From the IMG/VR virus record IMGVR_UViG_3300034018_000240: a DNA stretch of 64,000 nucleotides. One strand, 5' to 3'. A program made the position numbers and the translations under genes. Positions 1 to 29,106 of the stretch are shown piece by piece (within the stretch, counting starts at the first letter, position 1; each line of letters starts with the position of its first letter). This DNA is from a virus. The notes below the pieces were generated by a model that saw nothing but the letters and a program-made list of their open reading frames with translations, searched no databases and was not told where the DNA came from.

Positions 1-805
1 CTGCTTTGCTATGATATACAGGAATGCCTAATGCATCTGCAATCTTTGTGACACCACAGAATACTAGAATACGCTCGTCTTTATGTTTTGCTAGAAGTTC
101 TTTAGTCTTGTTAAGTTTTGCAAGACTGTTCTGAACAATTCTCATCCTAGCAAGACGTAAAAACATTGTACTCTTTCTCTGTTTCTCCATCTGATCTATA
201 ACCCAACCATAAGCATCAAATTGCTTCTTTTCAGTTTTCCATTTGCCTTTATAGTTGTTGTCCACTTTGTTATCTAATGCTACAGAAATCACTTTGATCT
301 CGTAGTCTGTAATAACACCTTCTTTAATTGCTTGTTCTATGGGATATGTAGCTAAAACTGGTAGCTTTAACTCTAGTCCTAATGTTTCTTCTGTATTTGA
401 TGTTAAAGTTCCTGTAAGACCTAACACTCTTTTGCAACATAATTCCTTTACAGCCTCTATTTGTGCTTCTGAGAGTAAATGTATCTCATCAAGTACAACT
501 AGGTCATAAAAGCATTCTGTGTGCTTTTTAATAGATAAATGTGTAGTATAAGTTATATTACTATTCTTATACTTTCTAGTTAAGAAGTCTTGTTCCCATG
601 CTGATTTAATCTTTAGATCAGGGTAGGCGATCAATATACTAATATCCTTGGGTAATTGCTCCAATATATTGATAGTTGTATATATTTTTCCAAACCTAGG
701 ACATAGATTAAGAATACCAGACTCTTCATGATCTAAAAATATCTTAGCAAACTGTTGCTGCCTCTTATCTCGTAATGTAAGGGTGTGGGGCTTTTGGTTT
801 GCCAT
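1..805 (-). CDS. SF2 (DEAD/DEAH-type) helicase; the 3' part of the gene (C-terminal part of the protein) lies beyond the window start
   Basis: Manual minus-strand translation from the ATG at 805 gives MANQKPHTLTLRDKRQQQFAKIFLDHEESGILNLCPRFGKIYTT...CFYDLVVLDEIHLLSEAQIEAVKELCCKRVLGLTGTLTSNTEE...ILVFCGVTKIADALGIPVYHSKA. It contains a DEIH motif II and an LGLTGT motif III-like segment. The ORF continues past position 1 and is absent from the ORF track because it is truncated. Confidence 0.6.
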   Translation of the reverse strand, partial: MANQKPHTLTLRDKRQQQFAKIFLDHEESGILNLCPRFGKIYTTINILEQLPKDISILIAYPDLKIKSAWEQDFLTRKYKNSNITYTTHLSIKKHTECFYDLVVLDEIHLLSEAQIEAVKELCCKRVLGLTGTLTSNTEETLGLELKLPVLATYPIEQAIKEGVITDYEIKVISVALDNKVDNNYKGKWKTEKKQFDAYGWVIDQMEKQRKSTMFLRLARMRIVQNSLAKLNKTKELLAKHKDERILVFCGVTKIADALGIPVYHSKA

Positions 806-975
806 AGCTTATAATTGTTGTAAATGACCAAAATAAATACTCAGCATTCACAGCTACGTATGGGTCATGTTTTTGTATGTTGTTCATCAAACTGACTGTA
901 GGGAACAACACCACTTGCCACCAATGGCTCTTTTTAGTGGGTAATGTATTATACATTTTGAAGTTTAATTTCATG

Positions 976-2037
976 TTACTTGTTTAAAAAGAAAGTTTTA
1001 TTAATAATCTCATTGTATACGTTTTCATTCATATACTTTACTTTTGGTAGCTCTTTGAACATACCAATCTGACCTAGGAAACCTAGACCAATTCTTACAT
1101 CATCCTCACCATATGAATTCTTAATGAGTCTTAATGATCTAAAGTACTTTGCACCATACTCATCTCTAAGTTTGTTCAGGTCATATCCTGATGGGTCTTG
1201 TACTTTATATCTCATAGGGTCAAACAATGCTAGGACAACGTCAGCATCGTTCTGGGTTTGTGAACTGTCAGCAAAGTCTTCCAACTGTGGTTCTACATCA
1301 CCATTCTTTAGTCTCATTGGACTAGAAATGTCTCTGTTGAACTGACTGACAATCACAGGACTATAACCATACATATCTCTAGCATATCTAAGCTCATCTG
1401 ACATTTTATCTATCAGTTGCTTCTTAGTAGGATAGTCTTTTGTTGGTTTCAATAAACCTATATGATCAATAACAACAATAGTTAGTTCACTCTCATTATT
1501 AGGAATGTATCTTTTGTTATACTGATCTACATCTTCTATTACACCATTTTGTAATGCATGTTCTTTTAGATGTTTAGATATGCCTATTGGGTTATCTGGT
1601 CCATCAATGATTGTAATGACATCTTTCATGTTCTCTAAGTAATCTTCATACATCAAGAATAGATCGTGCTCATCACTCGTCATCTTCTCTGTCCAACCTA
1701 ATAGCTTTGGCACAGGAATAATTACTCCTTGGTCTAGAAATATCTTTCTACTGACCCACTTGGCATACTTGTACGTTCTACTACGCTCCATTGAGCGATA
1801 TATGATGCGTAACTTCAGTTCTGGAGGTTTGTTATCAATGTACCAATCAAATGGATTTAAAACATAAGCGTCATCAATGAAGCTAGTTTTACCTGATCCA
1901 GTGAGACCACCCACAAGTGTGTACATAGACTTCCTAATGCCAATGTATCTGTTCAATCTATCAAAGCCCATAGGTATACCATTGTTTCTACCATCTAGGC
2001 CAGCTTGAACTTCTCGTTTTAAATCTTCAAAACTCAT
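976..2037 (-). CDS. DnaB-family (RecA-fold) replicative DNA helicase, helicase domain only
   Basis: 353 aa. Walker A in TLVGGLTGSGKTSFIDDA, Walker B-like TIVVIDHIGLL, DnaB H3-like IVSQFNRD, H4-like ADVVLALFD. Motif order and spacing match the DnaB/T7 gp4 helicase family. Confidence 0.7.
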   Translation of the reverse strand: MSFEDLKREVQAGLDGRNNGIPMGFDRLNRYIGIRKSMYTLVGGLTGSGKTSFIDDAYVLNPFDWYIDNKPPELKLRIIYRSMERSRTYKYAKWVSRKIFLDQGVIIPVPKLLGWTEKMTSDEHDLFLMYEDYLENMKDVITIIDGPDNPIGISKHLKEHALQNGVIEDVDQYNKRYIPNNESELTIVVIDHIGLLKPTKDYPTKKQLIDKMSDELRYARDMYGYSPVIVSQFNRDISSPMRLKNGDVEPQLEDFADSSQTQNDADVVLALFDPMRYKVQDPSGYDLNKLRDEYGAKYFRSLRLIKNSYGEDDVRIGLGFLGQIGMFKELPKVKYMNENVYNEIINKTFFLNK

Positions 2038-2660
2038 ATGTCCATTCCTTTAATTGGTTCGTCAGCCTCTTTAATTACCACACCCTGATTGATAAGCTCT
2101 ATATAGTTTTGAAATGAGCGTTGATTCAAATAAGTAAGACTGCCTTGCATGTAACTTAATCTATTTGTACCTGTCTTGAAAGAATTCTCTTTCTTTTGCG
2201 TCACTTCATATTCTAATGCTGCTATGAGCTGATCAACTGTGTATTCTCCTTCAGCAAGGATAGCATCTAGTTTTAGTTGGCAGTCATCTTTGTAAACACG
2301 CAGTGTTCTACCACCTGAGAAGCTTTTACCTTTATGTGTAAAGATATCAGTTCCTGGATATGCAGCCCACCATCTCTCAAACTCAGCAAAGGTTTGTGTT
2401 TTCTTTACAATCTTACTAGTCTTAGCACGTGTGTTCATGAATTCCAATAGATTCCTACCAAGGACTGTAATCTTAAATTGCTCAGACACTAATCCTTTTC
2501 TACGCAATGTCTGACATAGCATATCTGTCTTTGCTCCTCCTTCAGCTAATGTCTTGATGTCAAATTCTTCATCTATCAGCTTGAGAAGAAATACCATGTC
2601 TAATGTATATCCATCTTTGAGTAGTTGCTCAAAATGGTAAGGGGTTACTTTGATGTTCAT
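2034..2660 (-). CDS. hypothetical protein (208 aa), translationally coupled to the downstream helicase gene (ATGA overlap)
   Basis: Long ORF in the same orientation as neighbours. The 4-nt stop/start overlap with the DnaB-like gene suggests a functional link (possible loader/accessory factor; speculation). No recognisable motif. Confidence 0.45.
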   Translation of the reverse strand: MNIKVTPYHFEQLLKDGYTLDMVFLLKLIDEEFDIKTLAEGGAKTDMLCQTLRRKGLVSEQFKITVLGRNLLEFMNTRAKTSKIVKKTQTFAEFERWWAAYPGTDIFTHKGKSFSGGRTLRVYKDDCQLKLDAILAEGEYTVDQLIAALEYEVTQKKENSFKTGTNRLSYMQGSLTYLNQRSFQNYIELINQGVVIKEADEPIKGMDI

Positions 2661-2874
2661 GTTCTCTGTTTAGTATTTTGTCTTTATCAATTACTACTAT
2701 CTGAGCAGGCAGTTTTATTCTTCTAAACTCCTCTTCAAGTATCTGTTGTGTCTCTTGCAAATATACTAAATCTTTGAGAGATTCTCTCTCCCAATCTTCA
2801 TTAATTTGTAGATTTTTCATCTTTTTTATATTGTGCGTTGTTCCAAAAGAATGGACATGCCACTGTAATAACAC
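2629..2874 (-). CDS. small hypothetical protein; probable true start at ATG 2820 (MKNLQINEDWERE..., 63 aa)
   Basis: The ORF-track start is a GTG directly preceded by an in-frame TAG. An ATG lies at 2820. No motifs. Confidence 0.25.
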   Translation of the reverse strand: MLLQWHVHSFGTTHNIKKMKNLQINEDWERESLKDLVYLQETQQILEEEFRRIKLPAQIVVIDKDKILNREHEHQSNPLPF

Positions 2875-3028
2875 CTAGTGTTACATCATGTTCATCTAAC
2901 ATCATGTTCACTTTATATGGGGGATCTGAAAAATATGATTGTCCCAACTCATCAGGAATTGCTGTATATCTATGACAATTTAGTCTTAACATACAACTAC
3001 CACCTTTACAACATGAAATATCTGGCAT
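2801..3028 (-). CDS. small Cys-rich protein (75 aa) containing an FSDPPY motif
   Basis: MPDISCCKGGSCMLRLNCHRY...SYFSDPPYKVN. DPPY is the catalytic motif IV of N6-adenine/N4-cytosine DNA methyltransferases, but the ORF is far too short to be an MTase and no FxGxG motif follows. Confidence 0.3.
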   Translation of the reverse strand: MPDISCCKGGSCMLRLNCHRYTAIPDELGQSYFSDPPYKVNMMLDEHDVTLGVITVACPFFWNNAQYKKDEKSTN

Positions 3029-3029
3029 C

Positions 3030-3305
3030 TTATTTGTTTTTATGATTAATGTATATACGTAGTGTCTTATGTGTATCTTCTATCAAAGCTATCACTTTGG
3101 CATTCTTATCCCAATTGTAATACTTAACTACACCATCTTCTACAACTTCAATTTGTGTAACTAGTGTAGTGTTTAATATATTTTTACTAGGTAGAGGTAG
3201 TTTGTTTAGGGATATGTCCCTTGTACTCATTGGTCTGTGATAAGGATATTTTCCTGACATATGTTTAGTTTTAATTATTCTGCTGCATAACCAAAGAATA
3301 TCCAC
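3030..3305 (-). CDS. hypothetical protein (91 aa)
   Basis: ORF in the co-oriented early block; no motif. Confidence 0.3.
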   Translation of the reverse strand: MDILWLCSRIIKTKHMSGKYPYHRPMSTRDISLNKLPLPSKNILNTTLVTQIEVVEDGVVKYYNWDKNAKVIALIEDTHKTLRIYINHKNK

Positions 3306-3832
3306 TCACCATCTCTTTCTGTTGGTGATTTTTTGTATGTTATCTTAGCTACTAAGTTGTCACCTTTCTCTAAGAACTTCTTGATTACTATTGATGTAGT
3401 TACTTGATACTTTTCTGTATATTTACGAGCGTCTTTTACAGCATCCCCTTTTGTATCCCATGAACCAATAACATGATCACCACGTTGAACAACATATTTA
3501 AGTACCCACTTCTTCGTACCTGGTGTAACTATGTGCTCCACTTGAGATTGAGTCTTGTTCTTATTACCTACAGGTTGTACAACACATATAGCTGAACAAT
3601 CACGTTTGTTCATAGCATGACTATCAAATCTGTCACGTATGTAAGCAGATACATCATTAAACTTACTTTTCTTATATGCTTCTGTTTCATCTCTAAATCC
3701 ATGGGTAGTACTAATTGTACCATTGTAGCCATCTTGATGACCATACTCAAGTTCAGCTTCTTCACAAGCTCTGTTATATGCTTCTTCTGCTGTTTTACCA
3801 CCATATCTTGCTTTAAATTGACATGCTCCCAT
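3275..3832 (-). CDS. hypothetical protein (185 aa)
   Basis: Long ORF, co-oriented; no recognisable catalytic motif. Confidence 0.5.
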   Translation of the reverse strand: MGACQFKARYGGKTAEEAYNRACEEAELEYGHQDGYNGTISTTHGFRDETEAYKKSKFNDVSAYIRDRFDSHAMNKRDCSAICVVQPVGNKNKTQSQVEHIVTPGTKKWVLKYVVQRGDHVIGSWDTKGDAVKDARKYTEKYQVTTSIVIKKFLEKGDNLVAKITYKKSPTERDGEWIFFGYAAE

Positions 3833-3843
3833 AATTATTTATT

Positions 3844-4029
3844 TTATCTGCCATTCCAGGCAGGTGATGTAAATGAAATTCCTCCTTCTGTTCTATGATT
3901 GTTATTAATCTGATTGTCAGATGGTTCATCGTCTTCTTCATCTTCCCAATCGCAATGATCCCTACATTCAGGACAAATGTCTATCTCAGGCATACGAGAG
4001 TATGCCCCACAACATGTTGAATAAGCCAT
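3844..4029 (-). CDS. small zinc-ribbon-like acidic protein (61 aa)
   Basis: CC..(x)..CPEC..HC cysteine/histidine spacing followed by the acidic run DWEDEEDDEPSD. Confidence 0.4.
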   Translation of the reverse strand: MAYSTCCGAYSRMPEIDICPECRDHCDWEDEEDDEPSDNQINNNHRTEGGISFTSPAWNGR

Positions 4030-4040
4030 AAATTTTAGTT

Positions 4041-4442
4041 TTATTTTACTTCAATGTGATTCCTACCATCATTCCAATAACTTATGTCACCATACCATAC
4101 AAAGATTTCTTCGTCTGGTTGTATGAGCTTTGTAGCAACAAACTCAAATGTGTTGCGTTCTATGTTGGATCTCCAAGCAGCGTTGGCTGTGTCTGAATGA
4201 TTATAGAATGAACCAAACCCACCAGCTACCACTTGTTTCTCCCATCCTGATCCACCACCCTGTGGCCAATTGAATCTGTAATCTATGACACAAGGAGAAA
4301 CTTCTCCATTCTTCATACCTACATCAAAAAAGGGACACTCTTCTATGATGTCCCCTTCAAATATTACCTTGTCTGCAAATACTCCCCAGCCATGTATGCT
4401 GCTTGGAGCCATGTAGACTTTTGTTGATTGATAGATACGCAT
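4041..4442 (-). CDS. SET-domain protein lysine methyltransferase (minimal viral vSET-like, 133 aa)
   Basis: GWGVFADKVIFEGDIIEECP matches the SET N-region (compare chlorovirus vSET GYGVFARKSFEKGELVEEC, quoted from memory). GFGSFYNHSDTANA matches the NHSxxPN pseudoknot motif. EEIFVWYGDISYW matches the EELxxxYG post-SET motif. Size fits minimal viral SET proteins. Confidence 0.8.
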   Translation of the reverse strand: MRIYQSTKVYMAPSSIHGWGVFADKVIFEGDIIEECPFFDVGMKNGEVSPCVIDYRFNWPQGGGSGWEKQVVAGGFGSFYNHSDTANAAWRSNIERNTFEFVATKLIQPDEEIFVWYGDISYWNDGRNHIEVK

Positions 4443-4444
4443 AA

Positions 4445-4717
4445 TTAATCTTTTATTCTCAAACCAAACTGTAAGTCAAACCATTGAAAGTTTGCCTCAG
4501 CTCTTGATTTGTTTATTTTAAATACTTTCTTCATTAATGGAATAGCGTAAGCTTTAAACTGATCATGTTGTTCTTGTGTCATAGTCCATTTGCTATACCA
4601 TTCTTTAGTCATAAATGCTTCTTGTGTAGACTTACCAATCATTCCTAATTGATAGTCTACTAAATGATCACCTATGTTCTCTCTATTTATCTTTGCCATG
4701 CTTTTTGATTTCTTCAA
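4445..4717 (-). CDS. hypothetical protein (90 aa)
   Basis: Co-oriented ORF, no motif. Confidence 0.4.
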   Translation of the reverse strand: MKKSKSMAKINRENIGDHLVDYQLGMIGKSTQEAFMTKEWYSKWTMTQEQHDQFKAYAIPLMKKVFKINKSRAEANFQWFDLQFGLRIKD

Positions 4718-4907
4718 TTACTTCATCCCAGTATTGTGGATCATTATCTAGTCCAGAACCCATCCACATATCTTTGGCTTTTGTATCCATTATTTCATGT
4801 GCTGTTAGCGATGCACAGTCTGCTGCTTTATATATATCTCCAACTATGGATAAATGATTGAGTACGAGATATGCTGCTTTTACTTTTGCTTCCATTGTGT
4901 GTCTCAT
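4683..4907 (-). CDS. hypothetical protein (74 aa)
   Basis: Co-oriented ORF immediately upstream of polB (1-nt stop/start overlap); no motif. Confidence 0.4.
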   Translation of the reverse strand: MRHTMEAKVKAAYLVLNHLSIVGDIYKAADCASLTAHEIMDTKAKDMWMGSGLDNDPQYWDEVIEEIKKHGKDK

Positions 4908-6859
4908 TAGAATAAACTCATTTGATTAGGATTAACAATAACTTTACGTTTCTTACCTTCTAGTTGTATCTTGTGTATTATGCGTTCAGCACGCTCAATA
5001 TAATATGCATGATTGATGTTGTCCAGAGGATGATCTGATGTTAGATGATTACATACATGCATCACCCAATCACCTGCTTCCACTTGTGATACATCAACAG
5101 CTGTGCTATCTGAATTCTCGTTCTTCACCTTCAGTAGCTTCTCTCCTGTATTAGATACATAATATCTAATCAGCTTGTTATAGACTGTCTTCGTCTCTTT
5201 GCTGTGACCTTCGTAATGAAAGTCTTTACTAGCTTTCTGTCTGAGACAAAAGTCATATATATTTGTATGATTGCGAATGGTATCAGCCACAGGCACGTCA
5301 TTAACAAAAAAATGCTCAAGTGCAATAGGGACAACCCTAGCACTCTTATTTTTGTGTAGTTCAAAGTCTGTAAGGAAGTCACCCTTCTTTTTGATTTCGC
5401 CATCTGTTTTGATTGCTAGATAGTCATTTACTGTCGAGAATATAATCTTAGCATAGTCTGTACGTTCTAACTCATAACTGGTTAGATCCATCCACCACTT
5501 GTTAATCTCATGCATCTTCTCAACTTTGTCTTTGTGCACCTTGATTGTCACACCATCTGTATTTGCAGATATAATGTTTATACCAGCTAATTCATATGCT
5601 TCGATGAGCATCAGAAGACTTAGTTCTCCTGTGATGGTTGTGAACATTGTGAGCTGTCTGTCATAGATCCAAGACTGCATGTCAGAAGACTTACCATAAA
5701 CTGAATTGACTGCGAGTTTGAGTGCTCCAACAATACCTTTAATCTTTTTATCCTTTTTAGCAAGAGGCTTGAGCTCCAATCTTTTATCAAACATGGTTTT
5801 GTATCCTCTAAGGAACTCAGGGCCCAAATGATGAGGATATTTACCATTATTAATAATGATAGCAGGGTAATAACTGGATACATCCCAATCCACAATAATA
5901 TAATCAGCATCAGCTTCAAATATCTTAGGCTTGTTCTCTGTATGTAAGCCACCCTTTGCAAAAGTGTATATGTTGTCATAAAACTCTAATGATTCTTTAA
6001 ATTCATCTTTGATAGTTAGTTTCTCTTTGCTAATTGCTTTTAAGAACTGTTGTAGTTTTGGTGTCTGGAATGTAATGTAATCAGCAATACAATGTCTCAC
6101 CTTTACTTCAGTTCTAAACAAGCCTTTCTTTGGTAAATCAGAATATAATATGTTCTTTTCTTGACAATAGAACTTCTTAATCATCTCATCACCAATCTTA
6201 CTATCAGAATAGTTTAAACATGGTATGCCAAACTCTTCTTCAATATCTTGTCTGAGCTCTATCTGATTATTGCCCTTATACAATGGATGCTCAGTTTGAC
6301 CTATTGTTACCTTGTAGAACTCATAGGTAGCCATAACATCATTCTTACAATAGTCTTTAGTCAGTTGAATCTCTTCATCTGTCATGTTAATCTTTGTATG
6401 ATGTATAGGCATCTCTTCAATGTTCTCTAGATCCATCTCAAACTCTAGTCGTTTCAGTGAGACCATTCTATTCTTGTTATCATAGTGGTTCACTCTGAAT
6501 ACATCTATCTGCTTAAGTGTAAGCCATTCTTCTCTGTACTCAGGAAATACATCATAGTTAGCATCATGGATAATATCAGCAGCCTTTTGTGCTATCTTAG
6601 CAGCTGTCTCAAGAGCTGTGAGCTCATGCCAGTTTTCATAGTTACGCAAGATCCACTCAATCACTTGAGAGTCAAAGCGTAAGTTATTATAACCAACCCA
6701 ATAGTATTCAGGATGTTGTTCAATAAATCTCATATACCCATCTAGTTGGTTCTTATCCTTACTCACTTCAAACTCTGTATAAGTTTTGCTCCCAGGATTA
6801 TATATGCCAATGAGGAATAACTCCTGCATTGTCTCAATATCATAGATGAGTATATTCAT
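4907..6859 (-). CDS. family B DNA polymerase with 3'-5' proofreading exonuclease (650 aa)
   Basis: Exo I IYDIET, Exo II YNNLRFD, Exo III YCKNDV. Pol motif A DWDVSSYYPAIII (DxxSLYPS), motif B KLAVNSVYGKSS (Kx3NSxYG), motif C-like ISANTDGV (variant of YxDTDS). Compact size and motif B resemble phi29-type protein-primed polymerases. Confidence 0.85.
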   Translation of the reverse strand: MNILIYDIETMQELFLIGIYNPGSKTYTEFEVSKDKNQLDGYMRFIEQHPEYYWVGYNNLRFDSQVIEWILRNYENWHELTALETAAKIAQKAADIIHDANYDVFPEYREEWLTLKQIDVFRVNHYDNKNRMVSLKRLEFEMDLENIEEMPIHHTKINMTDEEIQLTKDYCKNDVMATYEFYKVTIGQTEHPLYKGNNQIELRQDIEEEFGIPCLNYSDSKIGDEMIKKFYCQEKNILYSDLPKKGLFRTEVKVRHCIADYITFQTPKLQQFLKAISKEKLTIKDEFKESLEFYDNIYTFAKGGLHTENKPKIFEADADYIIVDWDVSSYYPAIIINNGKYPHHLGPEFLRGYKTMFDKRLELKPLAKKDKKIKGIVGALKLAVNSVYGKSSDMQSWIYDRQLTMFTTITGELSLLMLIEAYELAGINIISANTDGVTIKVHKDKVEKMHEINKWWMDLTSYELERTDYAKIIFSTVNDYLAIKTDGEIKKKGDFLTDFELHKNKSARVVPIALEHFFVNDVPVADTIRNHTNIYDFCLRQKASKDFHYEGHSKETKTVYNKLIRYYVSNTGEKLLKVKNENSDSTAVDVSQVEAGDWVMHVCNHLTSDHPLDNINHAYYIERAERIIHKIQLEGKKRKVIVNPNQMSLF

Positions 6860-7125
6860 AATTGTTTATTTTTGTTAGTCCATCCATTTGCCATGTGTTC
6901 TTAAATGCCAAAATCTATGGCTTAACACTGCAACTATTATACCCCAAAATGTATCAGCTTCATATGAGCCTTCTTTAACTATTAGTTTCATATTATCTTT
7001 TATATGTTTTAATGTATTCTTTAATACACCATTTAATCATGTCCCATAGATAATATCTTTGTTTTGATTTAGAAAGCTTGTGTAAGCTTTCATAATAACT
7101 AAAATATTCATTCATAATTAGAAGT

Positions 7126-7392
7126 TTATTTCTCTTTTACTGATTTCTTAGCTGTTTTCACAGACTTTTTACTCTTATTAGAAATATAGTTCTCTTTACT
7201 ATCTAATAATGTAAGAAACGCTGCACTAATAACATCATATAAATATTTATCTTCAAGCATAGCTGATGCAAATGATGCAGCTAATATTGTTTTATCACCA
7301 TCGTCATCATATAATGTATGTACAGTGCCATCACCTATAGACATAAAGAAATGAGCTTTGAGCTTTGCTATTTGTGCTTTACTTTTTGCCAT
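7126..7392 (-). CDS. hypothetical protein with lysine-rich C-terminal tail (88 aa)
   Basis: C-terminus KSKKSVKTAKKSVKEK is histone-H1-like/basic; possible nucleic-acid binding (speculative). Confidence 0.45.
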   Translation of the reverse strand: MAKSKAQIAKLKAHFFMSIGDGTVHTLYDDDGDKTILAASFASAMLEDKYLYDVISAAFLTLLDSKENYISNKSKKSVKTAKKSVKEK

Positions 7393-7476
7393 ATTTATCT
7401 TTTAAACGTTGATAAACATAAGTTACCATATATGCCCAGCATATCACTGCTAAGACTATTTGAATGTAGAATAAAA

Positions 7477-7686
7477 TCATAAATTTATATTATATCTTTC
7501 TAATGAGATGTTCTTACAGAATCTAATCTCTTTGTTTGTTAATGTCCATATTTGTCCATCATCCATAGCACATGTAAATAAAAGGTTATGCTCCTGGCTA
7601 TAATCTATAACCAAAAAAGCATAACCTTCCATTTTATCAGATACCCTTACTATTGGTATCATTGGATTTAATTGCAGAATCATCAT
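7477..7686 (-). CDS. hypothetical protein (69 aa)
   Basis: Small co-oriented ORF. Confidence 0.3.
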   Translation of the reverse strand: MMILQLNPMIPIVRVSDKMEGYAFLVIDYSQEHNLLFTCAMDDGQIWTLTNKEIRFCKNISLERYNINL

Positions 7687-7781
7687 CTTTATTTGTATTA
7701 TCGTCTATAAATGGGGCATTTATCCATTCAACTATGATCCATACCCAAACAAGTAATACAAAGATAATAAAATAAATCATG

Positions 7782-8021
7782 TCAATAGTTTTTAAATCTA
7801 ATAAGTTTATACTCATCAGAGCTGATATACATATATCTGCGTCCTTTGATGTGTAATCTCTTAGATGGTTTATAATTTGCTTTCACAGCAAATATACTAT
7901 CTATTAGTTTAGAACAAGAATTAATTGTTCTTCTATAAGAAGAATCTTGTTGGTCTGGTTCGTACACTGTAATTGTATGTGTGCAATGTGGTTTTGCACT
8001 AAAGATTAGGCTGTAAGACAT
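7782..8021 (-). CDS. hypothetical protein (79 aa)
   Basis: Small co-oriented ORF; start preceded by CCAACACACATG, which resembles the AACACAC upstream motif of the 9485 and 9907 genes. Confidence 0.3.
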   Translation of the reverse strand: MSYSLIFSAKPHCTHTITVYEPDQQDSSYRRTINSCSKLIDSIFAVKANYKPSKRLHIKGRRYMYISSDEYKLIRFKNY

Positions 8022-8039
8022 GTGTGTTGGTATTAGTGG

Positions 8040-8348
8040 TTAAAAGAAGAATGTCATACCTGTTTCAGATATCTCTATCTTTGTAGGCTTTCTAAACGTA
8101 ACAGATCTTTTAAGAGGCATCTTTGTAGATACTGTCTTTGTCATAACTGGTTGACGTCTAGTGCGTTGTGGTGCCATGTCTAACATTTTAATGTAAACAC
8201 CATTAACTGGTCTGTTAAGACTGTTAGCTACAAACTTTGATAACTTAGCCATGGACATAGGCTTTGCAGTCTTTTTGTTGTCCATCATCATTGTCTTGAT
8301 TGTTCTTAATTCCTTCTTGGAATAGTTGTTTGATCCTTTCTTTCTCAT
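8040..8348 (-). CDS. hypothetical basic protein (possible later start near 8252-8291)
   Basis: Overlaps the upstream ORF by about 100 nt as drawn. K/R rich. Confidence 0.25.
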   Translation of the reverse strand: MRKKGSNNYSKKELRTIKTMMMDNKKTAKPMSMAKLSKFVANSLNRPVNGVYIKMLDMAPQRTRRQPVMTKTVSTKMPLKRSVTFRKPTKIEISETGMTFFF

Positions 8349-8646
8349 TTTGCTTTATTTTTTTGTTTAGTAAATACTGTTTTCTTTTAATTCTAGCTTC
8401 CTTTCTTTTCTTATTATGTTTCTTATTAATAGGTCCAGCTTGTTGCTGTCTCAATATTTGTTTTGGTGTTGTATCAAGACTAGTTAGCGTTTCACCTATT
8501 TTAGCTGATAAAGCTGTTCTAGGTTTTAATGGTAAAGGTATATTATGATGACTCATATGACCAGTATCAACACTTAAATCAATCTCTTTCACCAAACGTG
8601 GAGGGTTTTTAATCCTTCTCTTTCTTGTATTTCCTTTTAATATCAT
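8245..8646 (-). CDS. hypothetical highly basic protein (133 aa)
   Basis: KKHNKKRKEARIKRKQYLLNKKIKQNEKERIKQ low-complexity basic region. Sits immediately downstream of the 8671-8697 terminator, so probably the first gene of a new transcription unit. Confidence 0.35.
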   Translation of the reverse strand: MILKGNTRKRRIKNPPRLVKEIDLSVDTGHMSHHNIPLPLKPRTALSAKIGETLTSLDTTPKQILRQQQAGPINKKHNKKRKEARIKRKQYLLNKKIKQNEKERIKQLFQEGIKNNQDNDDGQQKDCKAYVHG

Positions 8647-8670
8647 ACGCTCTTCTATTTTATGTGTAAT

Positions 8671-8697
8671 AAAAAAGCCCTACATTTCTGCAGGGCT
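8671..8697 (-). terminator. rho-independent terminator for leftward transcription
   Basis: Minus-strand reading AGCCCTGCA-GAAA-TGTAGGGCT (9-bp stem with one G-U, GNRA tetraloop) followed by TTTTTT. Lies between the stop of 8717-8977 and the start of 8245-8646. Confidence 0.55.
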
Positions 8698-8716
8698 CTC
8701 GCTTACTAACCACACA

Positions 8717-8977
8717 TTAACCTAACCTTAATTTATTATCGTCCCATAATGCACTGACATTTAACTCTTTACACCATTGGTTGAACTTTTCACGCTCTGT
8801 AGGTGTAAATGGTTTGTTAATCTTTACAGTGATTTTGGGTCTGTCTTCTGTCTTTTGCTTGTTTTTAAATAATTCTAAGATATTTCTCATAGCTATTTCG
8901 TTTTGAATGTTAATATTATTCTGTTTCATGGTCTGCATCATTTGGTTCAGGATCATATTCAGTGAGGTCATCTTCAT
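8717..8977 (-). CDS. hypothetical protein (start probably at an internal Met, about 8935-8971)
   Basis: Co-oriented ORF followed by the intrinsic terminator. Confidence 0.35.
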   Translation of the reverse strand: MKMTSLNMILNQMMQTMKQNNINIQNEIAMRNILELFKNKQKTEDRPKITVKINKPFTPTEREKFNQWCKELNVSALWDDNKLRLG

Positions 8978-9485
8978 CTAAATCATCCTCCCAATCCTCA
9001 TCATCATCATCATCGTATTCATGCTCATCCACAAAACTTACATGTCTAATAGTCACCTTATCATGAAAAAAGACTACATTTCTATGTATACCTTCTTCAT
9101 CTTCAGAGTCAAATACTTCCAATGCTATATCACCATTCTCACCATCTTCACCATAAACATAGGCATTAATGATTTGAACTGTGAGGTCTTCCAAGTCATC
9201 AGAACTATCACCTTGGTCCCACCAACCTATTTGGTCAGGTGTTGCAAGGATTTCTTCTTTATCATCCTTATTCTGTGTTGGCATAACAATGTATGGCTCA
9301 ACTGGTGCACCATTGAAAGCAATGTAGCTTTCCATATCTTGTGGTATGTGTGTTAGTTCATGGAGTTGTAGGTATTCATATACCTGTCCATAAACCACAT
9401 CCTTTTGCTTTGATGCAAACCACATGCCTTTCTCTAGTTGTCTAGGCATATATGATTTGAATACAAGTTTAGCTAGTGTAAACAT
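8916..9485 (-). CDS. extremely acidic protein (189 aa; C-terminal about 60 residues almost entirely D/E)
   Basis: C-terminus FDSEDEEGIH...HEYDDDDDEDWEDDLDEDDLTEYDPEPNDADHETE. Start codon preceded by AAAAACACACGATATG. Confidence 0.5.
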   Translation of the reverse strand: MFTLAKLVFKSYMPRQLEKGMWFASKQKDVVYGQVYEYLQLHELTHIPQDMESYIAFNGAPVEPYIVMPTQNKDDKEEILATPDQIGWWDQGDSSDDLEDLTVQIINAYVYGEDGENGDIALEVFDSEDEEGIHRNVVFFHDKVTIRHVSFVDEHEYDDDDDEDWEDDLDEDDLTEYDPEPNDADHETE

Positions 9486-9498
9486 ATCGTGTGTTTTT
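9486..9498 (-). promoter_or_regulatory. conserved AAAAACACACGAT element abutting the start codon (minus strand)
   Basis: Minus-strand reading AAAAACACACGAT-ATG. Confidence 0.3.
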
Positions 9499-9628
9499 AG
9501 TGTATGTTAGCAAATATAGGTTAATTAGTTAATATAAGGACCCAGCTAGGGGAAGCTGAGCCCTATATATCTCACACAAACTAACCACTAATATTGTATT
9601 GTTATAAAGTCAGGTAATTCGTTCATGG

Positions 9629-9907
9629 CTAAAGTGTGTTAGTTAATTTCTCTTGTTTATATTCTTCCACTGCTATTTTAAGCTTCTCTCTTTGTTGATG
9701 AGCATAATCTTCAGTGACAAAACTAAGCTCCATCGTGTTATCTGTTCCTGGTTCAGAACAGCGTCCACCATACTTAAGCTTACCTAAATGTCCCCAAAAG
9801 TACATATCTCTAACCATCTCAATGGCTTCGAGTTCGTCTTCTGTCTCTCTAATAATCTTATAACCACTCAAGTTGTTGTTGTCATCCCTAATTAGTTCTA
9901 GTTTCAT
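9629..9907 (-). CDS. hypothetical protein (92 aa)
   Basis: ORF preceded by TAAACACACGATTATG, the same upstream motif as the 9485 gene. Confidence 0.45.
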   Translation of the reverse strand: MKLELIRDDNNNLSGYKIIRETEDELEAIEMVRDMYFWGHLGKLKYGGRCSEPGTDNTMELSFVTEDYAHQQREKLKIAVEEYKQEKLTNTL

Positions 9908-9920
9908 AATCGTGTGTTTA
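9908..9920 (-). promoter_or_regulatory. conserved TAAACACACGATT element abutting the start codon (minus strand)
   Basis: Minus-strand reading TAAACACACGATT-ATG; near-identical to the 9486 site. Confidence 0.3.
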
Positions 9921-10258
9921 GAATGTGTGTGTAAAAAGCGAATATATAGCCTAATGTTGCCTCAGCTGTATATTCTTATGTGTATGTCATAACGCAACAA
10001 ATAAAATCCCTCTGTACTCAAATGTATAATCTGTGGTTCAGGCTCATACGTCCTTTATGATAGTCCACCCTACCTCTATGTCTAGACCATAGATTAATTG
10101 ATTATACATTTGTCTATCCTTGGGAAATAGAAATGGTACATTAAATGATTAAATAGCTGTATTACAATTCAATTACCTCCAAGCAAATAAGCTTGATAGG
10201 ACGTAATAGGTCATGCATAACCTTTTACAACTATTTAATCAATATAATAAAGAGCAGA

Positions 10259-10498
10259 CTAATTGCCTGCTCCAATATCCTGAACAAAATAGAACTCACC
10301 ACCATGAATGAGTCTAATACCACCATATAATATACCATCTATATGAACAAACTTATCCAACACACCTTGTATTGGCAATTCCATAGACTTAATACTATCA
10401 ATAGAGACTTGTTCACTCTCTATAAAGAAATCATCCTTACTAATAGGACTAATGTTATTGCCAAATAATGTATAGGCAAGTTGTTGTGCGTTATTCAT
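10259..10498 (-). CDS. hypothetical protein (79 aa)
   Basis: Isolated ORF flanked by AT-rich intergenic DNA. Confidence 0.4.
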   Translation of the reverse strand: MNNAQQLAYTLFGNNISPISKDDFFIESEQVSIDSIKSMELPIQGVLDKFVHIDGILYGGIRLIHGGEFYFVQDIGAGN

Positions 10499-10660
10499 AT
10501 AAATGCTATTTAATGCTATATATATTGTATTGTATAGCGTGAATTAATGTATCTTGAAAAGATAGCTAAAAGGGCCTATTAAGCACACACCTCTTCAAAC
10601 ATTCACACGAAATATATTGATTATCAGTGTGTTATATTGTCTGAAGTCTTGATGTTGTAT

Positions 10661-10685
10661 AAAAAAGGGGGCACGAGGCCCCCTT
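10661..10685 (-). terminator. rho-independent terminator for leftward transcription
   Basis: Minus-strand reading GGGGGC-CTCGT-GCCCCC followed by TTTTTT. Starts 3 nt after the stop of the 10690-11097 gene. Confidence 0.6.
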
Positions 10686-10689
10686 AATG

Positions 10690-11097
10690 CTAGTAAGCAG
10701 CTAGTTCTTCGTAACTAACAGCTTGCTTAGCAGTGCTATCAATTACAAATTCTTCTTCTTCACCACCTTTACCAACTGGTGCACAGATTGTAGTGATCTT
10801 ACCATCAAGGCTTTCACAAATGTTAAGCTTCAAAATGGCAGCAATCACGTCTCTTTTAGGTGCCCCATTATCAAGAGCGTTCTTCACAGTCAAGCTAACT
10901 CTCTTACTTAATGGACAAGTGGTGCTTGTACCATCTTTTAGTGTTAATACCATTGACATTGCTTTGATGACACCATCATTGAACCTGCTGATAGTACCTG
11001 GACAAAACTTAACGCTTCCACCTGCGTGAAGACTTGCAACTGTTCCCAATTCAGTTAGCTTAGGAGTGCTAACAAACTCTTTGTACATTAGTGCCAT
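10690..11097 (-). CDS. hypothetical protein, first gene of the leftward early arm (135 aa from MALMYKEFVS...)
   Basis: The ORF track extends to 11199 through the G-rich regulatory repeats. The Met at 11097 is the plausible start. The gene is insulated by its own strong terminator. C-terminus GGEEEEFVIDSTAKQAVSYEELAAY is acidic. Confidence 0.5.
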   Translation of the reverse strand: MALMYKEFVSTPKLTELGTVASLHAGGSVKFCPGTISRFNDGVIKAMSMVLTLKDGTSTTCPLSKRVSLTVKNALDNGAPKRDVIAAILKLNICESLDGKITTICAPVGKGGEEEEFVIDSTAKQAVSYEELAAY

Positions 11098-11119
11098 TGT
11101 TTTTCGTTTTAGGCTGTTA

Positions 11120-11570
11120 ATTAATAGGGGGGATGTGTCGATCCCCCAATTGTAGGAGGGGTGGCAAGCTGGAAGTACCCTCTCCTCCCATGGACACAAT
11201 AGGGGTAGGGGGTATGTAAAATTTTTGGTAGGGGGTTGTTAATTGTTCCATGTGGAACATTCTGTCTAAGCAATTGAAGACTAGGGGGTTAGCTGGCCCA
11301 AGTGTTAAATGTTGTGTCACACTTTTTCAAATATTTGTGACAGATTTGGCAAGTTATAACAAGTCTATATTCTGCCAAAAGTCAAGCTATAGCTTTACCC
11401 TAGGGGATGTTTAGTCAAGGGATAGCTTTACATAATGTGTCTTATTATACCCATAAGCATATAGTTTGGTCTTTATAAGGGACATTATATCTTAGGGCAT
11501 ATAAAAATAAATTTGGTGGGTATAAATATTTACCTGTATCTTTGGGGGGGATTTAGGGGGGGCCCCATCT
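11120..11570. repeat. divergent regulatory hub with TAGGGG(G) iteron-like repeats, short palindromes and G7 tracts; candidate early promoter/operator region and/or replication origin
   Basis: TAGGGG(G) copies at about 11125, 11152 (variant), 11200, 11205, 11229, 11282, 11401 and 11554. Inverted repeat GGGGGAT-GTGTCG-ATCCCCC at 11128-11147. Palindrome TGTTCCA-TG-TGGAACA at 11244-11259. GGGGGGG-ATTTA-GGGGGGG-CCCC at 11544-11566. Transcription polarity switches here. Confidence 0.5.
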
Positions 11571-11601
11571 AATACCTCTCTATTAATTAAAGCTTTGATA
11601 T

Positions 11602-11844
11602 ATGGTAGTATTATTACTTGGTTGTATTGTTGGTCTCTTGAGTGTGATTGTAGTGGTATGGGGGTTTGTACACTTTGAGGAGTGGGAGATAGGGATAGAG
11701 TTTCTACCTAAACATTATAACAACTTTGAGCTAGGAATATCGAATAGAAACTACGAGCTGACAGATGGAGGACTAGAGCAAGAGCTTAGAATAGGTCTGT
11801 TATTATTCACCTTTTTAATCATGTTTAGGAGATTTGATGCATAA
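11602..11844 (+). CDS. small hydrophobic (membrane) protein (80 aa)
   Basis: MVVLLLGCIVGLLSVIVVVWGFV... N-terminal TM-like segment. First ORF of the rightward arm; could be spurious. Confidence 0.3.
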   Translation: MVVLLLGCIVGLLSVIVVVWGFVHFEEWEIGIEFLPKHYNNFELGISNRNYELTDGGLEQELRIGLLLFTFLIMFRRFDA

Positions 11845-11907
11845 TATAGCATTAACTTTTATAATAACTAAAATAGTTATTTGTAGATCGTCCAGATATA
11901 CATACCT

Positions 11908-12273
11908 TTGTATCAACTAATTATGGAAGCAAAACCAATTGTACAACGACTAAAGACTTCAGTCAATGACAGTATTGTCATGGCTGAGAAGTATTATAGA
12001 ATCTTGTCAGCTGTCAATGACCTGAAGCTTACAAAGAGGGAGATACAATTGATAGCCTTTGCTGCTATAAAAGGGAACATCTCTTATGCTAATATACGTA
12101 AGGAGTTTTGTGAAAGATACGACAGTACGTCCCCAGCCATAAATAACATTATCTCCAAACTAAAGAAGATGGGGATATTTGTAAAGGATGGGACAAAGGT
12201 GAAGGTTAATCCCATCATCTTGCTCAACTTTGAGAAAGATCTTGTATTGCAAATAACTCTAGCACATGGATAA
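11908..12273 (+). CDS. hypothetical early protein (121 aa)
   Basis: Co-oriented ORF at the start of the rightward arm. Confidence 0.45.
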   Translation: MYQLIMEAKPIVQRLKTSVNDSIVMAEKYYRILSAVNDLKLTKREIQLIAFAAIKGNISYANIRKEFCERYDSTSPAINNIISKLKKMGIFVKDGTKVKVNPIILLNFEKDLVLQITLAHG

Positions 12274-12652
12274 GCCTATAAGTATGTCTGTCAAGGACTA
12301 CCTTGTTAGGACCCTTGCTGTGAAGATGATGATTTCTGAGAAGACAATTGAGACAGTGATAAACCACCAGTTTCAATCTGCCAACGAGGCGATGGACACA
12401 AATAACAGTATTGAAATCTCTGGGTTTGGGAAGTTTTATTTCAATGAGAAGAAAGCCAAGAAACGTCTAGAAGACTTGACTAGGAAGAAAAACCTAATGC
12501 TTGAGTTCCTAGCCAGTGCTGAAACCTCAGAACAAAAGAAACGTTCCTCTCAGGTGACACTAGAAAAAACAGAAGCTCTGATCAATTTACTAAAAAGTAA
12601 AATTATATATGAAGATCAACTTCTCTCAGATTTACGAGGGCTGGAAGAATAA
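12266..12652 (+). CDS. HU/IHF-like (DNABII-like) DNA-binding protein, N-terminal similarity only
   Basis: MSVKDYLVRTLAVKMMISEKTIETVINHQFQSANEAMDTNNSIEISGFGKFYFNEKKAKK parallels the HU pattern (helix-helix then GFGxF...R..R). The RNP arm motif is absent; the C-terminus is charged and coiled. Confidence 0.45.
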   Translation: MDKPISMSVKDYLVRTLAVKMMISEKTIETVINHQFQSANEAMDTNNSIEISGFGKFYFNEKKAKKRLEDLTRKKNLMLEFLASAETSEQKKRSSQVTLEKTEALINLLKSKIIYEDQLLSDLRGLEE

Positions 12653-27207: not shown

Positions 27208-29106
27208 ATGTCTTGTTCTTCTTGCTATCCTAATCCTAATCCTTGTTACACTGCATATTATCAACCTGGTCAAAACTGTGGTTGTTGTGGTGGTGTAGTG
27301 GGTGATTGTGGATGTGTTGGTACTGCTGGCACTGCTGGCACTGGTGGCTGGGGCTGCTGGTGTGGTGCTACAGGCTGTGCAGATGCTCCTTATAATAGTA
27401 ATAATACTGTCTATGTTGGACCTAATCTTCCTAACTCAGGTGTTAACACTTGTGACACTTTAACCACTGCATTAGAAAAAATTGACTATGTAGTAACAGG
27501 TGGTGGAGGTGGTGGAAAAAATGGAACATCAGGAACTAGTGGAACTCCTAGTACAAGTGGTTCTTCTGGAACCTCTGGTTCTTCTGGCTCTAGTGGTGTA
27601 ACTGGTGCTCAAGGTGCTGCTGGTGTAAATGGTACAGCAGGTTCTTCTGGTACATCAGCTTTGTCTGGTTCTTCTGGATCTTCTGGAAGTTCAGGAACTG
27701 CTGGTAAAAATGGTTCTAGTGGTGTTGATGGTAGTTCTGGAATCAGTGGTAGTAGTGGTACAAGTGGAAATTCAGGATCAAGTGGTAATAGTGGTACAAG
27801 TGGTACTGATGGCTCTAGTGGAACAGCAGGAACAGCAGGAACAGCAGGAGCTGACGGAGCTAATGGAAGCAGTGGCACAAGTGGTCAAAATGCAACCAGT
27901 GGTACAGCAGGACTATCAGGTGATAAATATGCTACAACATCAGTTAGCTCATTTACACTAGGAAGTGGAGGTACAATTACTGTTGGTACAGGACTTTCTT
28001 ATACCATAGCACAATCTGTATTAATTTCATTTAATGGATCAAACTATCAAACTTCTCCAGTTACATCTTATAACTCTGGAACAGGTGTTTTAGTTTTAGG
28101 TACACCAAGTGCTACTGTAGGTTCAGGAACTTATAGTTCTTGGACAGTTAACTTAGCAGGAGCTGCAGGTGGTAATGGTTCTAGTGGTACTTCTGGTTCT
28201 TCTGGAACAAATGGTACAGCTGGTACTAGTGGTACGTCTGGTACAGCTGGTACTTCTGGTACTAATGGAACAACTGGCACTTCTGGAACAACAGGTACAA
28301 GTGGAACAAATGGAACTTCTGGTTCTAGTGGTACTAGTGGTACCAATGGAACAACTGGTACAAATGGATCATCAGGGTCTAGTGGATCTTCAGGTTCATC
28401 TGGCTCTTCTGGATCATCAGGTAGCTCTGGATCTTCTGGGGTTAGTGGTACTAGTGGATCTTCTGGTGTATCTAATAGTATTTCTGGTGCTACTAATCAA
28501 GTTCTTAAATATAGTAGTGCTACTTCTGCTGTAGGATGTTCTATATATGATGATGATAATTATACATCAATAGGTGGTCCTAATCCAGGATCAAGACTTA
28601 ATGTATATCTAGGTAATGGTCAACCAGCAGGAAACTATGTTGCAGATTTTGCAGGCATAGAACCATACGTTACAGTTAGAGCATTAGGTGGTAGTAATAC
28701 TGCTACATTACAATTACTTCCTACATCAGGTTATACAGCATTTATTGGTAACTATAATGGTGGAGGTGTGATAATTAGAGCAATGAATGCTGATGTGGTT
28801 ACAATTGATTCATCTGGTGTTACAGCTCCAGCATTTTTTGAAACTTCTGATATTAGGTATAAGGATGTATTAGAATGGAACCCAGAAATAAATGTGCTTG
28901 GAATAGATGTAATTAAATTTAAGCGTACTGATATTGTAACTAATACAATTAACTATGGTTATTCAGCTCAACAAGTACAAGAAATTATTCCTGATGTTGT
29001 TAATGAGATAGATGAAAAGTTAAGTGTAAACTACATAGCTGTTCATACATTAAAGATAGCAGCATTAGAAAAACGTATTGCAGAACTTGAAGCTAAATTA
29101 AAATAA
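27208..29106 (+). CDS. collagen-like tail fibre with C-terminal S74 intramolecular-chaperone autopeptidase domain
   Basis: Cys-rich N-terminus. Two long (G-X-Y)n tracts (about 27520-27930 and 28140-28490). C-terminus SDIRYKDVLEWNPE...GYSAQQVQEIIPDVV...LKIAALEKRIAELEAKLK matches the endosialidase-chaperone pattern (SDxRxK...GxiAQEvqevlPelV...coiled coil). Confidence 0.75.
   Translation: MSCSSCYPNPNPCYTAYYQPGQNCGCCGGVVGDCGCVGTAGTAGTGGWGCWCGATGCADAPYNSNNTVYVGPNLPNSGVNTCDTLTTALEKIDYVVTGGGGGGKNGTSGTSGTPSTSGSSGTSGSSGSSGVTGAQGAAGVNGTAGSSGTSALSGSSGSSGSSGTAGKNGSSGVDGSSGISGSSGTSGNSGSSGNSGTSGTDGSSGTAGTAGTAGADGANGSSGTSGQNATSGTAGLSGDKYATTSVSSFTLGSGGTITVGTGLSYTIAQSVLISFNGSNYQTSPVTSYNSGTGVLVLGTPSATVGSGTYSSWTVNLAGAAGGNGSSGTSGSSGTNGTAGTSGTSGTAGTSGTNGTTGTSGTTGTSGTNGTSGSSGTSGTNGTTGTNGSSGSSGSSGSSGSSGSSGSSGSSGVSGTSGSSGVSNSISGATNQVLKYSSATSAVGCSIYDDDNYTSIGGPNPGSRLNVYLGNGQPAGNYVADFAGIEPYVTVRALGGSNTATLQLLPTSGYTAFIGNYNGGGVIIRAMNADVVTIDSSGVTAPAFFETSDIRYKDVLEWNPEINVLGIDVIKFKRTDIVTNTINYGYSAQQVQEIIPDVVNEIDEKLSVNYIAVHTLKIAALEKRIAELEAKLK

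Follow-up and report, generated by a model that had tools for sequence, protein, structure and literature searches.

What kind of control element lies between the two oppositely oriented gene arms of the virus record IMGVR_UViG_3300034018_000240? The window, that is, the whole stretch of 64,000 nucleotides (64 kb) analyzed here, has a G+C content of ~0.35 and contains at positions 11120-11570, between these arms, a block that an earlier note had read as a G-rich iteron array with palindromes and paired G7 tracts, in other words as an origin or a regulatory hub. Comparison with related phages indicates that this block has been conserved in evolution as a control region separating the early from the late arm, and that it is made of two different elements rather than one array. 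Read from its sequence, its known part is the class of the two plus-strand promoters P1 and P2 on its right side, its unusual part is a conserved G-tract region in which P1 transcription would start, and its undescribed part is a module of ~140 nt in its left half. The explanation that we favor, with a probability of about 0.5, is that the block is a transcription-control hub in which the right half carries promoters for the host RNA polymerase (RNAP) and the left half an entry or start element for the early arm.

The phage itself has no close match, as searches of annotated and deposited phages with the window DNA returned neither near-identical nor distant relatives. The window encodes a Crassvirus-type major capsid protein, a P22-like portal, a large terminase, a DnaB-like helicase and a DNA polymerase, together with a giant protein of 4,145 amino acids (aa). 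The C-terminal ~1,050 aa of the latter align with gp66, the virion RNA polymerase (vRNAP) of Cellulophaga phage phi14:2 (BLASTP, E=3e-33), with GSDFDIDK aligned in both proteins and DFDID located at residue 3286. Only this direct comparison succeeded, the vRNAP region having no match among PDB sequences and PHROGs. Because of this set of structural and replication genes and of the gp66 alignment, the window belongs to an uncultured crAss-like phage with a gp66-type vRNAP. The 4,145-aa open reading frame (ORF) is about twice as long as gp66 (2,180 aa) and holds the vRNAP domain at the C-terminal end of a single ORF; its N-terminal 1,500 aa have phrog_32390, of unknown function, as their sole match, and the remainder matched neither PHROG nor PDB sequences. 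Genes of the replicative arm occupy the minus strand from position 1 to 11097 and genes of the structural arm the plus strand from 11602/11923 onward, which bears out the placement of the block at the point of divergence. The GC skew changes sign at ~11,000, and its cumulative minimum falls at this hub, as the earlier note had proposed to check.

To divide the block into its elements (Table 1), we pulled 160 related loci from IMG/VR using TerL and DNA polymerase anchors, aligned 52 non-redundant relatives and added per-locus scans. Parts of the non-coding region are better conserved than the flanking genes; positions 11312-11347, for instance, show 94-100% identity among relatives that share ~73% identity in coding DNA. 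The sequence features listed in the earlier note, including the GGGGGAT/ATCCCCC hairpin, the TGTTCCA-TG-TGGAACA palindrome and the G7-ATTTA-G7-C4 element, are all present and far from chance expectation. TAGGGG occurs seven times on the plus strand of the block, from 11125 to 11559, out of ten copies in the window, and all five TAGGGGG copies of the window are found there on the same strand; the announced count of about eight copies was thus nearly right, but the statement that they often take the form TAGGGGGTT was exaggerated, as this sequence has two copies only. Seven of the 17 plus-strand runs of at least five G fall within 550 nt, a clustering reproduced by none of 200,000 random placements. 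The motif scan of the whole window and the single copy of the left module argue for a specific regulatory hub rather than a genome-wide motif.

The idea of iterons did not survive this comparison. The unit is a G-run of 5-7 nt with unconserved flanks, the seven TAGGGG copies start 75, 6, 23, 53, 119 and 153 nt apart, and the longest repeated unit measures 9-13 nt, whereas iterons would be three or more helically phased direct repeats of ~17-22 bp. Relatives have between two and seven G-runs, with differing flanks and with C-runs in place of some of them. Iterons built on TAGGGGGTT are therefore unsupported, since the G-runs alone are conserved and no repeat unit accompanies them. Likewise, TAGGGGG is not a promoter repeated over the early genes for an RNAP of the phage, as had been offered as an alternative, because it is absent from the rest of the window. 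Sequence comparison brought out two aspects that the earlier reader overlooked: the G7 pair coincides with the region in which transcription from a canonical and strongly conserved promoter of the host type would start, and the left half is a single conserved structured module.

The promoters of the right half conform to the consensus of sigma-ABfr, the primary sigma factor of Bacteroidota, with a -33 box TTTG and a -7 box TAnnTTTG (PMC7366714). P1 and P2 match the pattern TTTG-N19-21-TAnnTTTG exactly, with spacers of 21 and 19 nt, respectively. This full pattern has three matches in the 64 kb vs 1.46 expected, and two of the three are P1 and P2. Their boxes are at least 90% conserved in the 52 relatives, where the fixed nucleotides are kept while those marked n vary, and P1 was present in nearly every related locus according to the per-locus scans. 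When counted over 63 loci, the pattern occurs 110 times in the sense of the plus arm in 690 kb (0.16/kb), essentially P1 and P2 at each locus, vs six times in 299 kb of minus arm (0.02/kb), a density in line with the antisense background (0.01/kb). A scan of the window for E. coli-type promoters yielded background level only. The pattern also recovers the phi14:2 promoters upstream of g110 and g108, which were mapped by primer extension and assigned to the host RNAP (bioRxiv 10.1101/2020.03.07.982082). By their boxes, P1 and P2 are canonical Bacteroidota sigma-A promoters of the class mapped in phi14:2, and they would drive the structural arm via the host RNAP. As in phi14:2, the match to the consensus is exact, and the promoters stand where the structural arm begins, read in its direction and preceded by an A-rich upstream element. 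Unlike the phi14:2 promoters, those described here form a tandem pair in a phage known from sequence, and a conserved G-tract cluster, absent from both phi14:2 and the Leptolyngbya phage Lbo-JY46, comes after P1.

This cluster, G7-ATTTA-G7-C4, begins with the last G of the -7 box of P1 and covers the start-site spacer and the first ~15 nt of the predicted transcript. It includes a motif of four tracts of at least three G separated by loops of 1-7 nt, GGG-G-GGG-ATTTA-GGG-G-GGG (11544-11562), and is the most G-quadruplex-prone site of the window (G4Hunter score of 2.20), in agreement with the G-quadruplex that had been considered possible. A G-tract cluster always follows P1 in the relatives, in two interchangeable forms, G7-ATTTA-G7 or GGGG-TGGA-GGGTGGGG. 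Its 29 distinct variants have G4Hunter scores of 1.5-2.5, and only nine of them contain the canonical four-tract motif. A 5′ stem-loop, formed by the second G-tract and the C-rich stretch that follows, is found in 15 of 37 variants, with compensatory changes such as ATTTAGGG..CCCTAAGT vs AAAAAGGG..CCCTTTGT. These alignments suggest that the universal constraint after P1 is the G-richness of the non-template strand, with selection on the density of G-tracts, and that the hairpin is a frequent addition. The paired G7 tracts of P1 offer a natural case for promoter-proximal G-quadruplex or R-loop effects in Bacteroidota phages.

The left module was followed with an nhmmer profile built from 31 homologs, which gave one match per locus, always in the same orientation, in ~65 related loci, and one match in the window. 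Its hairpin H1 has a core, consisting of a G-run, a loop of 3-11 nt and a C-run followed by AA(C/T), that is present in all of the 33 diverse relatives of the module alignment (A1), with a stem of 7 bp in the window and 4-9 bp in relatives. Over 50 loci, the median distance by which H1 precedes the first minus-arm ATG is 40 nt, and in 43 of them this distance is 24-68 nt. Its outer stem covaries in several lineages (GCCATG/CATGGC, GCCAAG/CTTGGC, GACAAG/CTTGTC, GCAGG/CCTGC, TTACGCA/TGCGTAA and GCAATGTT/AACATTGC). The hairpins of the module fold with z ~ -2 on both strands, and no asymmetry in folding energy was detected between the strands. The stem H2 is weakly supported because RNAalifold retains its GGGG/CTCC core alone, with a conserved G·U pair and zero compensatory change. 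Further along the module, the unit composed of ACACAA, a G-run and AnTn varies in copy number (L013, L014, L056, L062 and L077) and is duplicated in some genomes, and a C-run stands in place of the G-run in six lineages (L037, L041, L073, L075, L061 and L054). The palindrome, in the form GTTCCA-NN-(T/A)GGAAC, is found beside 49 of 91 module matches. Its operator-like character, already suggested in the earlier note, is upheld: because its half-sites GTTCCA/TGGAAC are conserved in sequence around a variable central dinucleotide, with no covariation, it behaves like a candidate operator for a dimeric protein. The conserved block that follows the module is optional, as it is absent from some relatives such as L002, and in L001, L008 and L022 the position of its inverted repeat is taken by another one, TGCATGAA...TTCATGCA, whose loop is similar.

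More ordinary identities for the module were also considered. A minus-strand scan flags H1 as a possible intrinsic terminator, but A residues break up the tail CTATTAATTA so that it lacks a continuous T-run, and H1 precedes the gene. The G/C hairpins of the window other than those of the H1/H2 module are terminator-like only. A minus-strand ORF of 24 codons across the module was rejected because the indels of the module are not multiples of three, and a minus-strand -7 box of the host type next to H1 (TACAATTG) was rejected as unconserved in relatives. In sequence terms, the left module is an undescribed conserved hairpin-plus-G-run element, whose conservation we observe and whose function we infer.

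The function that we propose is that of an entry or start site from which the vRNAP would transcribe the early arm. In phi14:2 the replicative arm is the early class and is made by gp66 (bioRxiv 10.1101/2020.03.07.982082), an enzyme that transcribes single-stranded or denatured DNA efficiently, and not duplex DNA. By analogy, the replicative arm of the present phage would belong to the early class of its vRNAP, and since the minus arm has no promoter of the host type and the module is the only conserved element ahead of it, an early start at the module appears plausible. The hairpin and the G-tracts may render the duplex prone to structure and thereby expose a single-stranded template to a polymerase unable to use duplex DNA. 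The palindromes may be operators for the MarR-like winged-helix protein and the HU/IHF-like protein encoded at the head of the plus arm, which would switch between the arms; the two proteins are candidate binders of the palindromes and of the A-tract. The narrower proposal that the ~140-nt module is a crAss-type vRNAP recognition or entry site, present in single copy and extruding or melting in the injected DNA, draws on analogy and is tentative, a possibility against which we would put the odds.

A comparison with phi14:2 lends some substance to this proposal. The arms of phi14:2 diverge in a region of 358 bp between g110 and g111 which, in the orientation of the window, reads TTAATTAATTG ... 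GGGGATACTCCCCAAT ... TGGGGGATGATTG ... CACACAA ... A8 upstream of g111, the first early gene. In the 100-kb phi14:2 genome the best match of the module profile is the hairpin on the g111 side, in the expected orientation, with a prior chance of ~0.002 for place and strand combined, and the hairpin-core pattern occurs once vs 0.02 expected. The mapped promoter lies on the side of this look-alike (hairpin GGGGATACTCCCC) opposite from g111. The Lbo-JY46 clade also has a hairpin, GGGGGAGTAG and an A9 tract, which abut a plus-arm promoter and lie ~760 nt from the minus-arm gene. Adjacency to one particular gene is not kept, and the constant is therefore the position of the module between the arms and its orientation. 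The module is absent from phi17:2, which does not belong to the Crassvirales. No relatives of phi14:2's own clade were found in either of the sequence collections searched, and the TerL anchor of Lbo-JY46 retrieved one relative only.

Lbo-JY46 (PP438436.1; L081/L082) is the closest cultured relative, with a TerL 40% identical, and is recorded as cyanobacterial. The TerL arms of Lbo-JY46 and of its relative L168 contain repeated TTTGGTAG-N~16-TA(T/C)CTTTG boxes, which correspond to the Bacteroidota-type promoter consensus. Either the host assignment of Lbo-JY46 or the presumed specificity of this type of promoter merits a second look.

Several observations weigh against an early start at the module, and against the hub as a whole. 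The preprint by Drobysheva reports no common motif upstream of the gp66 transcripts (bioRxiv 10.1101/2020.03.07.982082); if the vRNAP recognizes the module, the site would have been missed because a motif search in one genome cannot find a single-copy site. By profile score, the resemblances in phi14:2 and Lbo-JY46 are insignificant (nhmmer E ~0.3 to 1), and the arrangement in Lbo-JY46 could fit a role in the plus arm equally well. A hairpin resembling an intrinsic terminator directly follows the first minus-arm gene, which looks like a monocistronic unit downstream of which the early arm must be re-initiated; the module is therefore not the sole early promoter. The outer stem of H1 is absent from the window's own H1, and comparing cognate with non-cognate flanks over 50 variants of all lineages gave p=0.07, the effect being real in sub-lineages only. 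Changes of the G·T and A·C types in H1 number 4 vs 11, counts that do not single out the strand that folds. RNAalifold found almost no consensus structure on the MAFFT alignment, in part because loops of unequal length go out of register. Both the activity of P1 and the early start at the module are predictions from the sequence.

The nearest known counterpart of such a site is found in coliphage N4, whose early promoters are template-strand DNA hairpins, with a stem of 5-7 bp and a loop of 3 nt, that are recognized by an injected virion RNAP, an enzyme without activity on relaxed duplex DNA. In both phages the injected RNAP requires a single-stranded template, and in both a short G/C hairpin, with a loop of 3-5 nt in many of the relatives described here, lies a few tens of nucleotides upstream of the first early gene. 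The N4 vRNAP is T7-like and N4 has three promoters. In contrast, the crAss vRNAP belongs to a different fold class, resembling multisubunit RNAPs (the DFDxD motif is shared with cellular multisubunit RNAPs), and the module occurs as a single copy and is larger, with ~140 nt that include G-runs, an A-tract and a palindrome.

Should the block instead be a replication origin, the module would bind an initiator, with its AnTn tract serving for unwinding or bending, and transcription from P1 through the G-tracts would generate a stable R-loop or a G-quadruplex on the non-template strand, priming or activating replication, for which the promoter-plus-downstream-element origins of T4 and T7, and also ColE1 and mitochondrial CSBII, provide a comparison. 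We consider this unlikely, although it is the alternative that we take most seriously. The skew minimum at the hub would fit, but the change of skew is entirely confounded with the change of gene direction. The site most prone to G-quadruplexes and R-loops immediately follows a strong conserved promoter, and its proneness persists in both forms of the cluster; on the other hand, phi14:2 and Lbo-JY46 have no G-block after the promoter. CSBII and ColE1 RNA II are promoter-proximal G-rich R-loop or G-quadruplex elements that couple transcription to replication priming. As in these systems, the non-template G-tracts lie within ~20 nt of a strong promoter start and G-richness is kept as the sequence changes; they differ in that the four-tract motif is confined to the minority of variants given above, and the likeness is one of sequence only. 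The variable copy number of the ACACAA, G-run and AnTn unit speaks for an origin. Reminiscent of iteron origins such as lambda ori, with its O-protein iterons and AT-rich region, are the clustering of repeats by an A/T tract, the adjacent winged-helix gene and the location at a skew switch. Here, however, true iterons are absent, with irregularly spaced homopolymer runs of 5-7 nt in place of iterons of 17-22 bp, and the conserved AnTn tract beside the G-runs is just 9-16 bp long. The winged-helix protein has a match to lambda Rep_O (E=0.017) and an HU/IHF-like gene is nearby, yet this match is below threshold and the fold search favors MarR-type regulators. The origin of the prototypic crAssphage was predicted at the boundary between the arms, beside an initiator gene in first position, from OriFinder, read coverage and RepL genes (PMC10983915). 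The two regions share their intergenic location, oppositely oriented arms, a GC-skew shift and a first-position gene for a DNA-binding protein, but RepL was not detected by Pfam among the window proteins.

A little more doubtful still is that the whole region serves the host RNAP only and takes no part in vRNAP transcription or replication, the module being a set of UP-like A-tract, operators and HU/IHF bending sites for the plus-arm promoters, with hairpins that are incidental to palindromic protein sites. The A-tract of the Lbo-JY46 clade does abut the -33 box of a plus-arm promoter and the module ends 60-80 nt from P1 in several close relatives, but in the window 285 nt separate the module from P1 vs only 30 nt from the minus-arm ATG, and the spacing of H1 to this ATG is tight in most loci, as described above. 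The palindrome conserved without covariation, the replacement of G-runs by C-runs in place, as expected for recognition of duplex DNA, and the adjoining winged-helix and HU-like genes would all suit protein sites of this kind, whereas the compensatory changes in the outer stem of H1 suggest a single-stranded fold. This explanation also leaves the minus arm with no recognizable promoter. Physical ends of a linear genome, with a terminal repeat or a terminase site, are highly improbable here. In crAss001 there are short direct terminal repeats and the early genes lie at one end, and the phi14:2 arms, transcribed in opposite directions, would start from opposite physical ends. Many contigs of related loci do begin or end within 11100-12040, in the H1 loop (L022, L080, L085), in H2 (L001, L090), before P1 (L010, L049) and in the G7 pair (L021), and contigs of 103.7 kb and 113.9 kb, that is, near-complete genomes, are broken at the region. 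We downgraded this reading because the break points are scattered over ~900 nt rather than at one or two positions and because a search for overlapping ends was negative. There is a single occurrence of the first 40-mer of L001, what is missing from the L021/L106 contig is simply a 54-nt stretch that includes P1, and other contigs continue across the region. The region is probably a hot spot of assembly breaks caused by G homopolymers and strain-level indels. Ends of independent metagenomic contigs of this clade were seen at window positions 11117-11840 in L001, L009, L010, L021/L106, L022, L049, L080, L085, L090 and L162. Least probable of all is a gene for a structured non-coding RNA, despite the conservation of non-coding stretches above that of neighboring coding DNA, the folding scores of the hairpins on both strands and the abundant early non-coding RNAs that phi14:2 makes from long intergenic regions. 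No tRNA and no Rfam match at the gathering threshold was found in the window, and permissive thresholds added only a chance-level match to SraG (E=0.59) outside the block. RNAalifold gave essentially no consensus structure or compensatory pairs, no promoter precedes the module on either strand, and indels and copy-number changes occur inside it.

Table 1. Elements of the block and surrounding genes, numbered by window position
Feature	Position	Strand	Description
Intrinsic-terminator-like hairpin	10665-10685	-	AAGGGGGCCTCGTGCCCCCTT then TTTTAT, directly after the first minus-arm gene
First minus-arm gene, 135 aa	10690..11097	-	Function unknown; from ORF list and sequence
Left module, ~140 nt	11122..11261	+	In order: H1, H2, CCCATGGACACAA, G-runs, A4T5, palindrome
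Hairpin H1	11128..11147		GGGGGAT / GTGTCG loop / ATCCCCC; TAGGGGGG at 11125-11132 forms the 5′ arm
Stem H2	11154..11186		AGGAGGGGTG (11154-11163) pairs with TACCC-T-CTCCT (11176-11186); RNAfold of window and homologs
Conserved blocks	11187..11237	+	CCCATGGACACAA 11187-11199, TAGGGGTAGGGGG 11200-11212, A4T5 11218-11226, TAGGGGGTT 11229-11237
Palindrome TGTTCCA-TG-TGGAACA	11244..11259		Operator-like; once in the window
Optional conserved block	11282..11445		TAGGGGGTT 11282-11290; TAGGGG 11401-11406
Inverted repeat of optional block	11315-11321, 11336-11342		TGTCACA, N14, TGTGACA; from sequence
Two AGTCAAGnnATAGCTTTAC copies of optional block	11380-11398, 11413-11431		Core palindrome AAGCTATAGCTT
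Predicted promoter P1	11503..11544	+	A-rich upstream element, -33 TTTG (11512-11515), 21-nt spacer, -7 TATCTTTG (11537-11544)
G-tract cluster G7-ATTTA-G7-C4	11544..11566	+ (non-template)	At the predicted P1 start site and immediately downstream of it
Small membrane-protein gene, 80 aa	11602..11844	+	From ORF list; between P1 and P2 in a subset of relatives
Conserved block GCATAATATAGCATTAAC	within 11838..11910	+	Upstream of P2; two GCAT(A/T)A half-sites 10 bp apart
Predicted promoter P2	11880-11883, 11903-11910	+	TTTG, N19, TACCTTTG; ahead of the 116-aa gene
First conserved plus-arm gene, 116 aa	11923..12273	+	MarR-like winged-helix fold (AlphaFold2 model, pLDDT 74)
HU/IHF-type DNA-binding protein gene	12266..12652	+	Pfam Bac_DNA_binding, E=1.7e-9; phrog_379
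Giant protein, 4,145 aa	51161..63598	+	C-terminal part is a gp66-type vRNAP

Most relatives have an ORF of 126-149 aa at the first minus-arm position, with fast sequence divergence. The structural matches of the 116-aa protein in Foldseek are headed by MarR-family regulators, followed by weaker matches to the N-terminal activation domain of MotA, the middle-transcription factor of T4 (TM-score 0.57-0.68); in Pfam it has sub-threshold winged-helix matches only, among them Phage_rep_O with the E value given above. Its homologs, 1,525 unnamed proteins at E<=1e-3, are very abundant in public metagenomes. No homology was detectable between the first plus-arm genes of the three clades. L010, L049 and L060 conserve the 80-aa peptide encoded between P1 and P2, which is hydrophobic in its N- and C-terminal segments, and the distance from P1 to the next ATG is ~410 nt where its gene is present vs ~190-220 nt where it is absent, so that the gene has the appearance of an accessory insertion into the leader.

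Additional conserved sites were seen on both sides of the block. Pairs of GCAT(A/T)A half-sites with a spacing of 10 bp are common to the non-coding blocks at 10495-10552 and 11838-11856, which are 90-100% conserved in relatives. On the minus arm the block TAGCATTAAATAGCATTTA lies just before the second gene (ATG at 10498), and on the plus arm the block TGCATAATATAGCATTAAC lies ~25-40 nt upstream of the -33 box of P2; from their sequence, they look like a candidate protein-binding site shared by both arms. An intergenic block of 40 nt on the minus arm, at 10105-10145, reaches 95-98% identity in relatives that share ~73% identity in coding DNA, and holds TACATTTG on the plus strand, antisense to the arm. 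Elsewhere in the window, a 632-aa protein encoded at 27208-29106 shows collagen triple-helix repeats (Pfam E=1.2e-28) along with a weak match of its C-terminal part to Peptidase_S74, an intramolecular chaperone, and is probably a tail fiber.

CrAss-like phages, which all carry a giant virion RNA polymerase, rank among the most abundant phages known, and our search of the literature found no described promoter for a crAss-type vRNAP. With the left module there is now a definite DNA element, conserved and in single copy, at the start of an arm presumably transcribed by this polymerase, and phi14:2 has a look-alike at the same place. Since a purified enzyme and an infection system exist for phi14:2, the question of where the vRNAP starts is directly testable there. 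Should the region be an origin instead, it would be the first defined origin architecture for the clade. If the module does admit the vRNAP, crAss-like phages would have reached a solution convergent with the hairpin promoters of N4 by means of an unrelated polymerase of the multisubunit-RNAP-like, DFDxD type.

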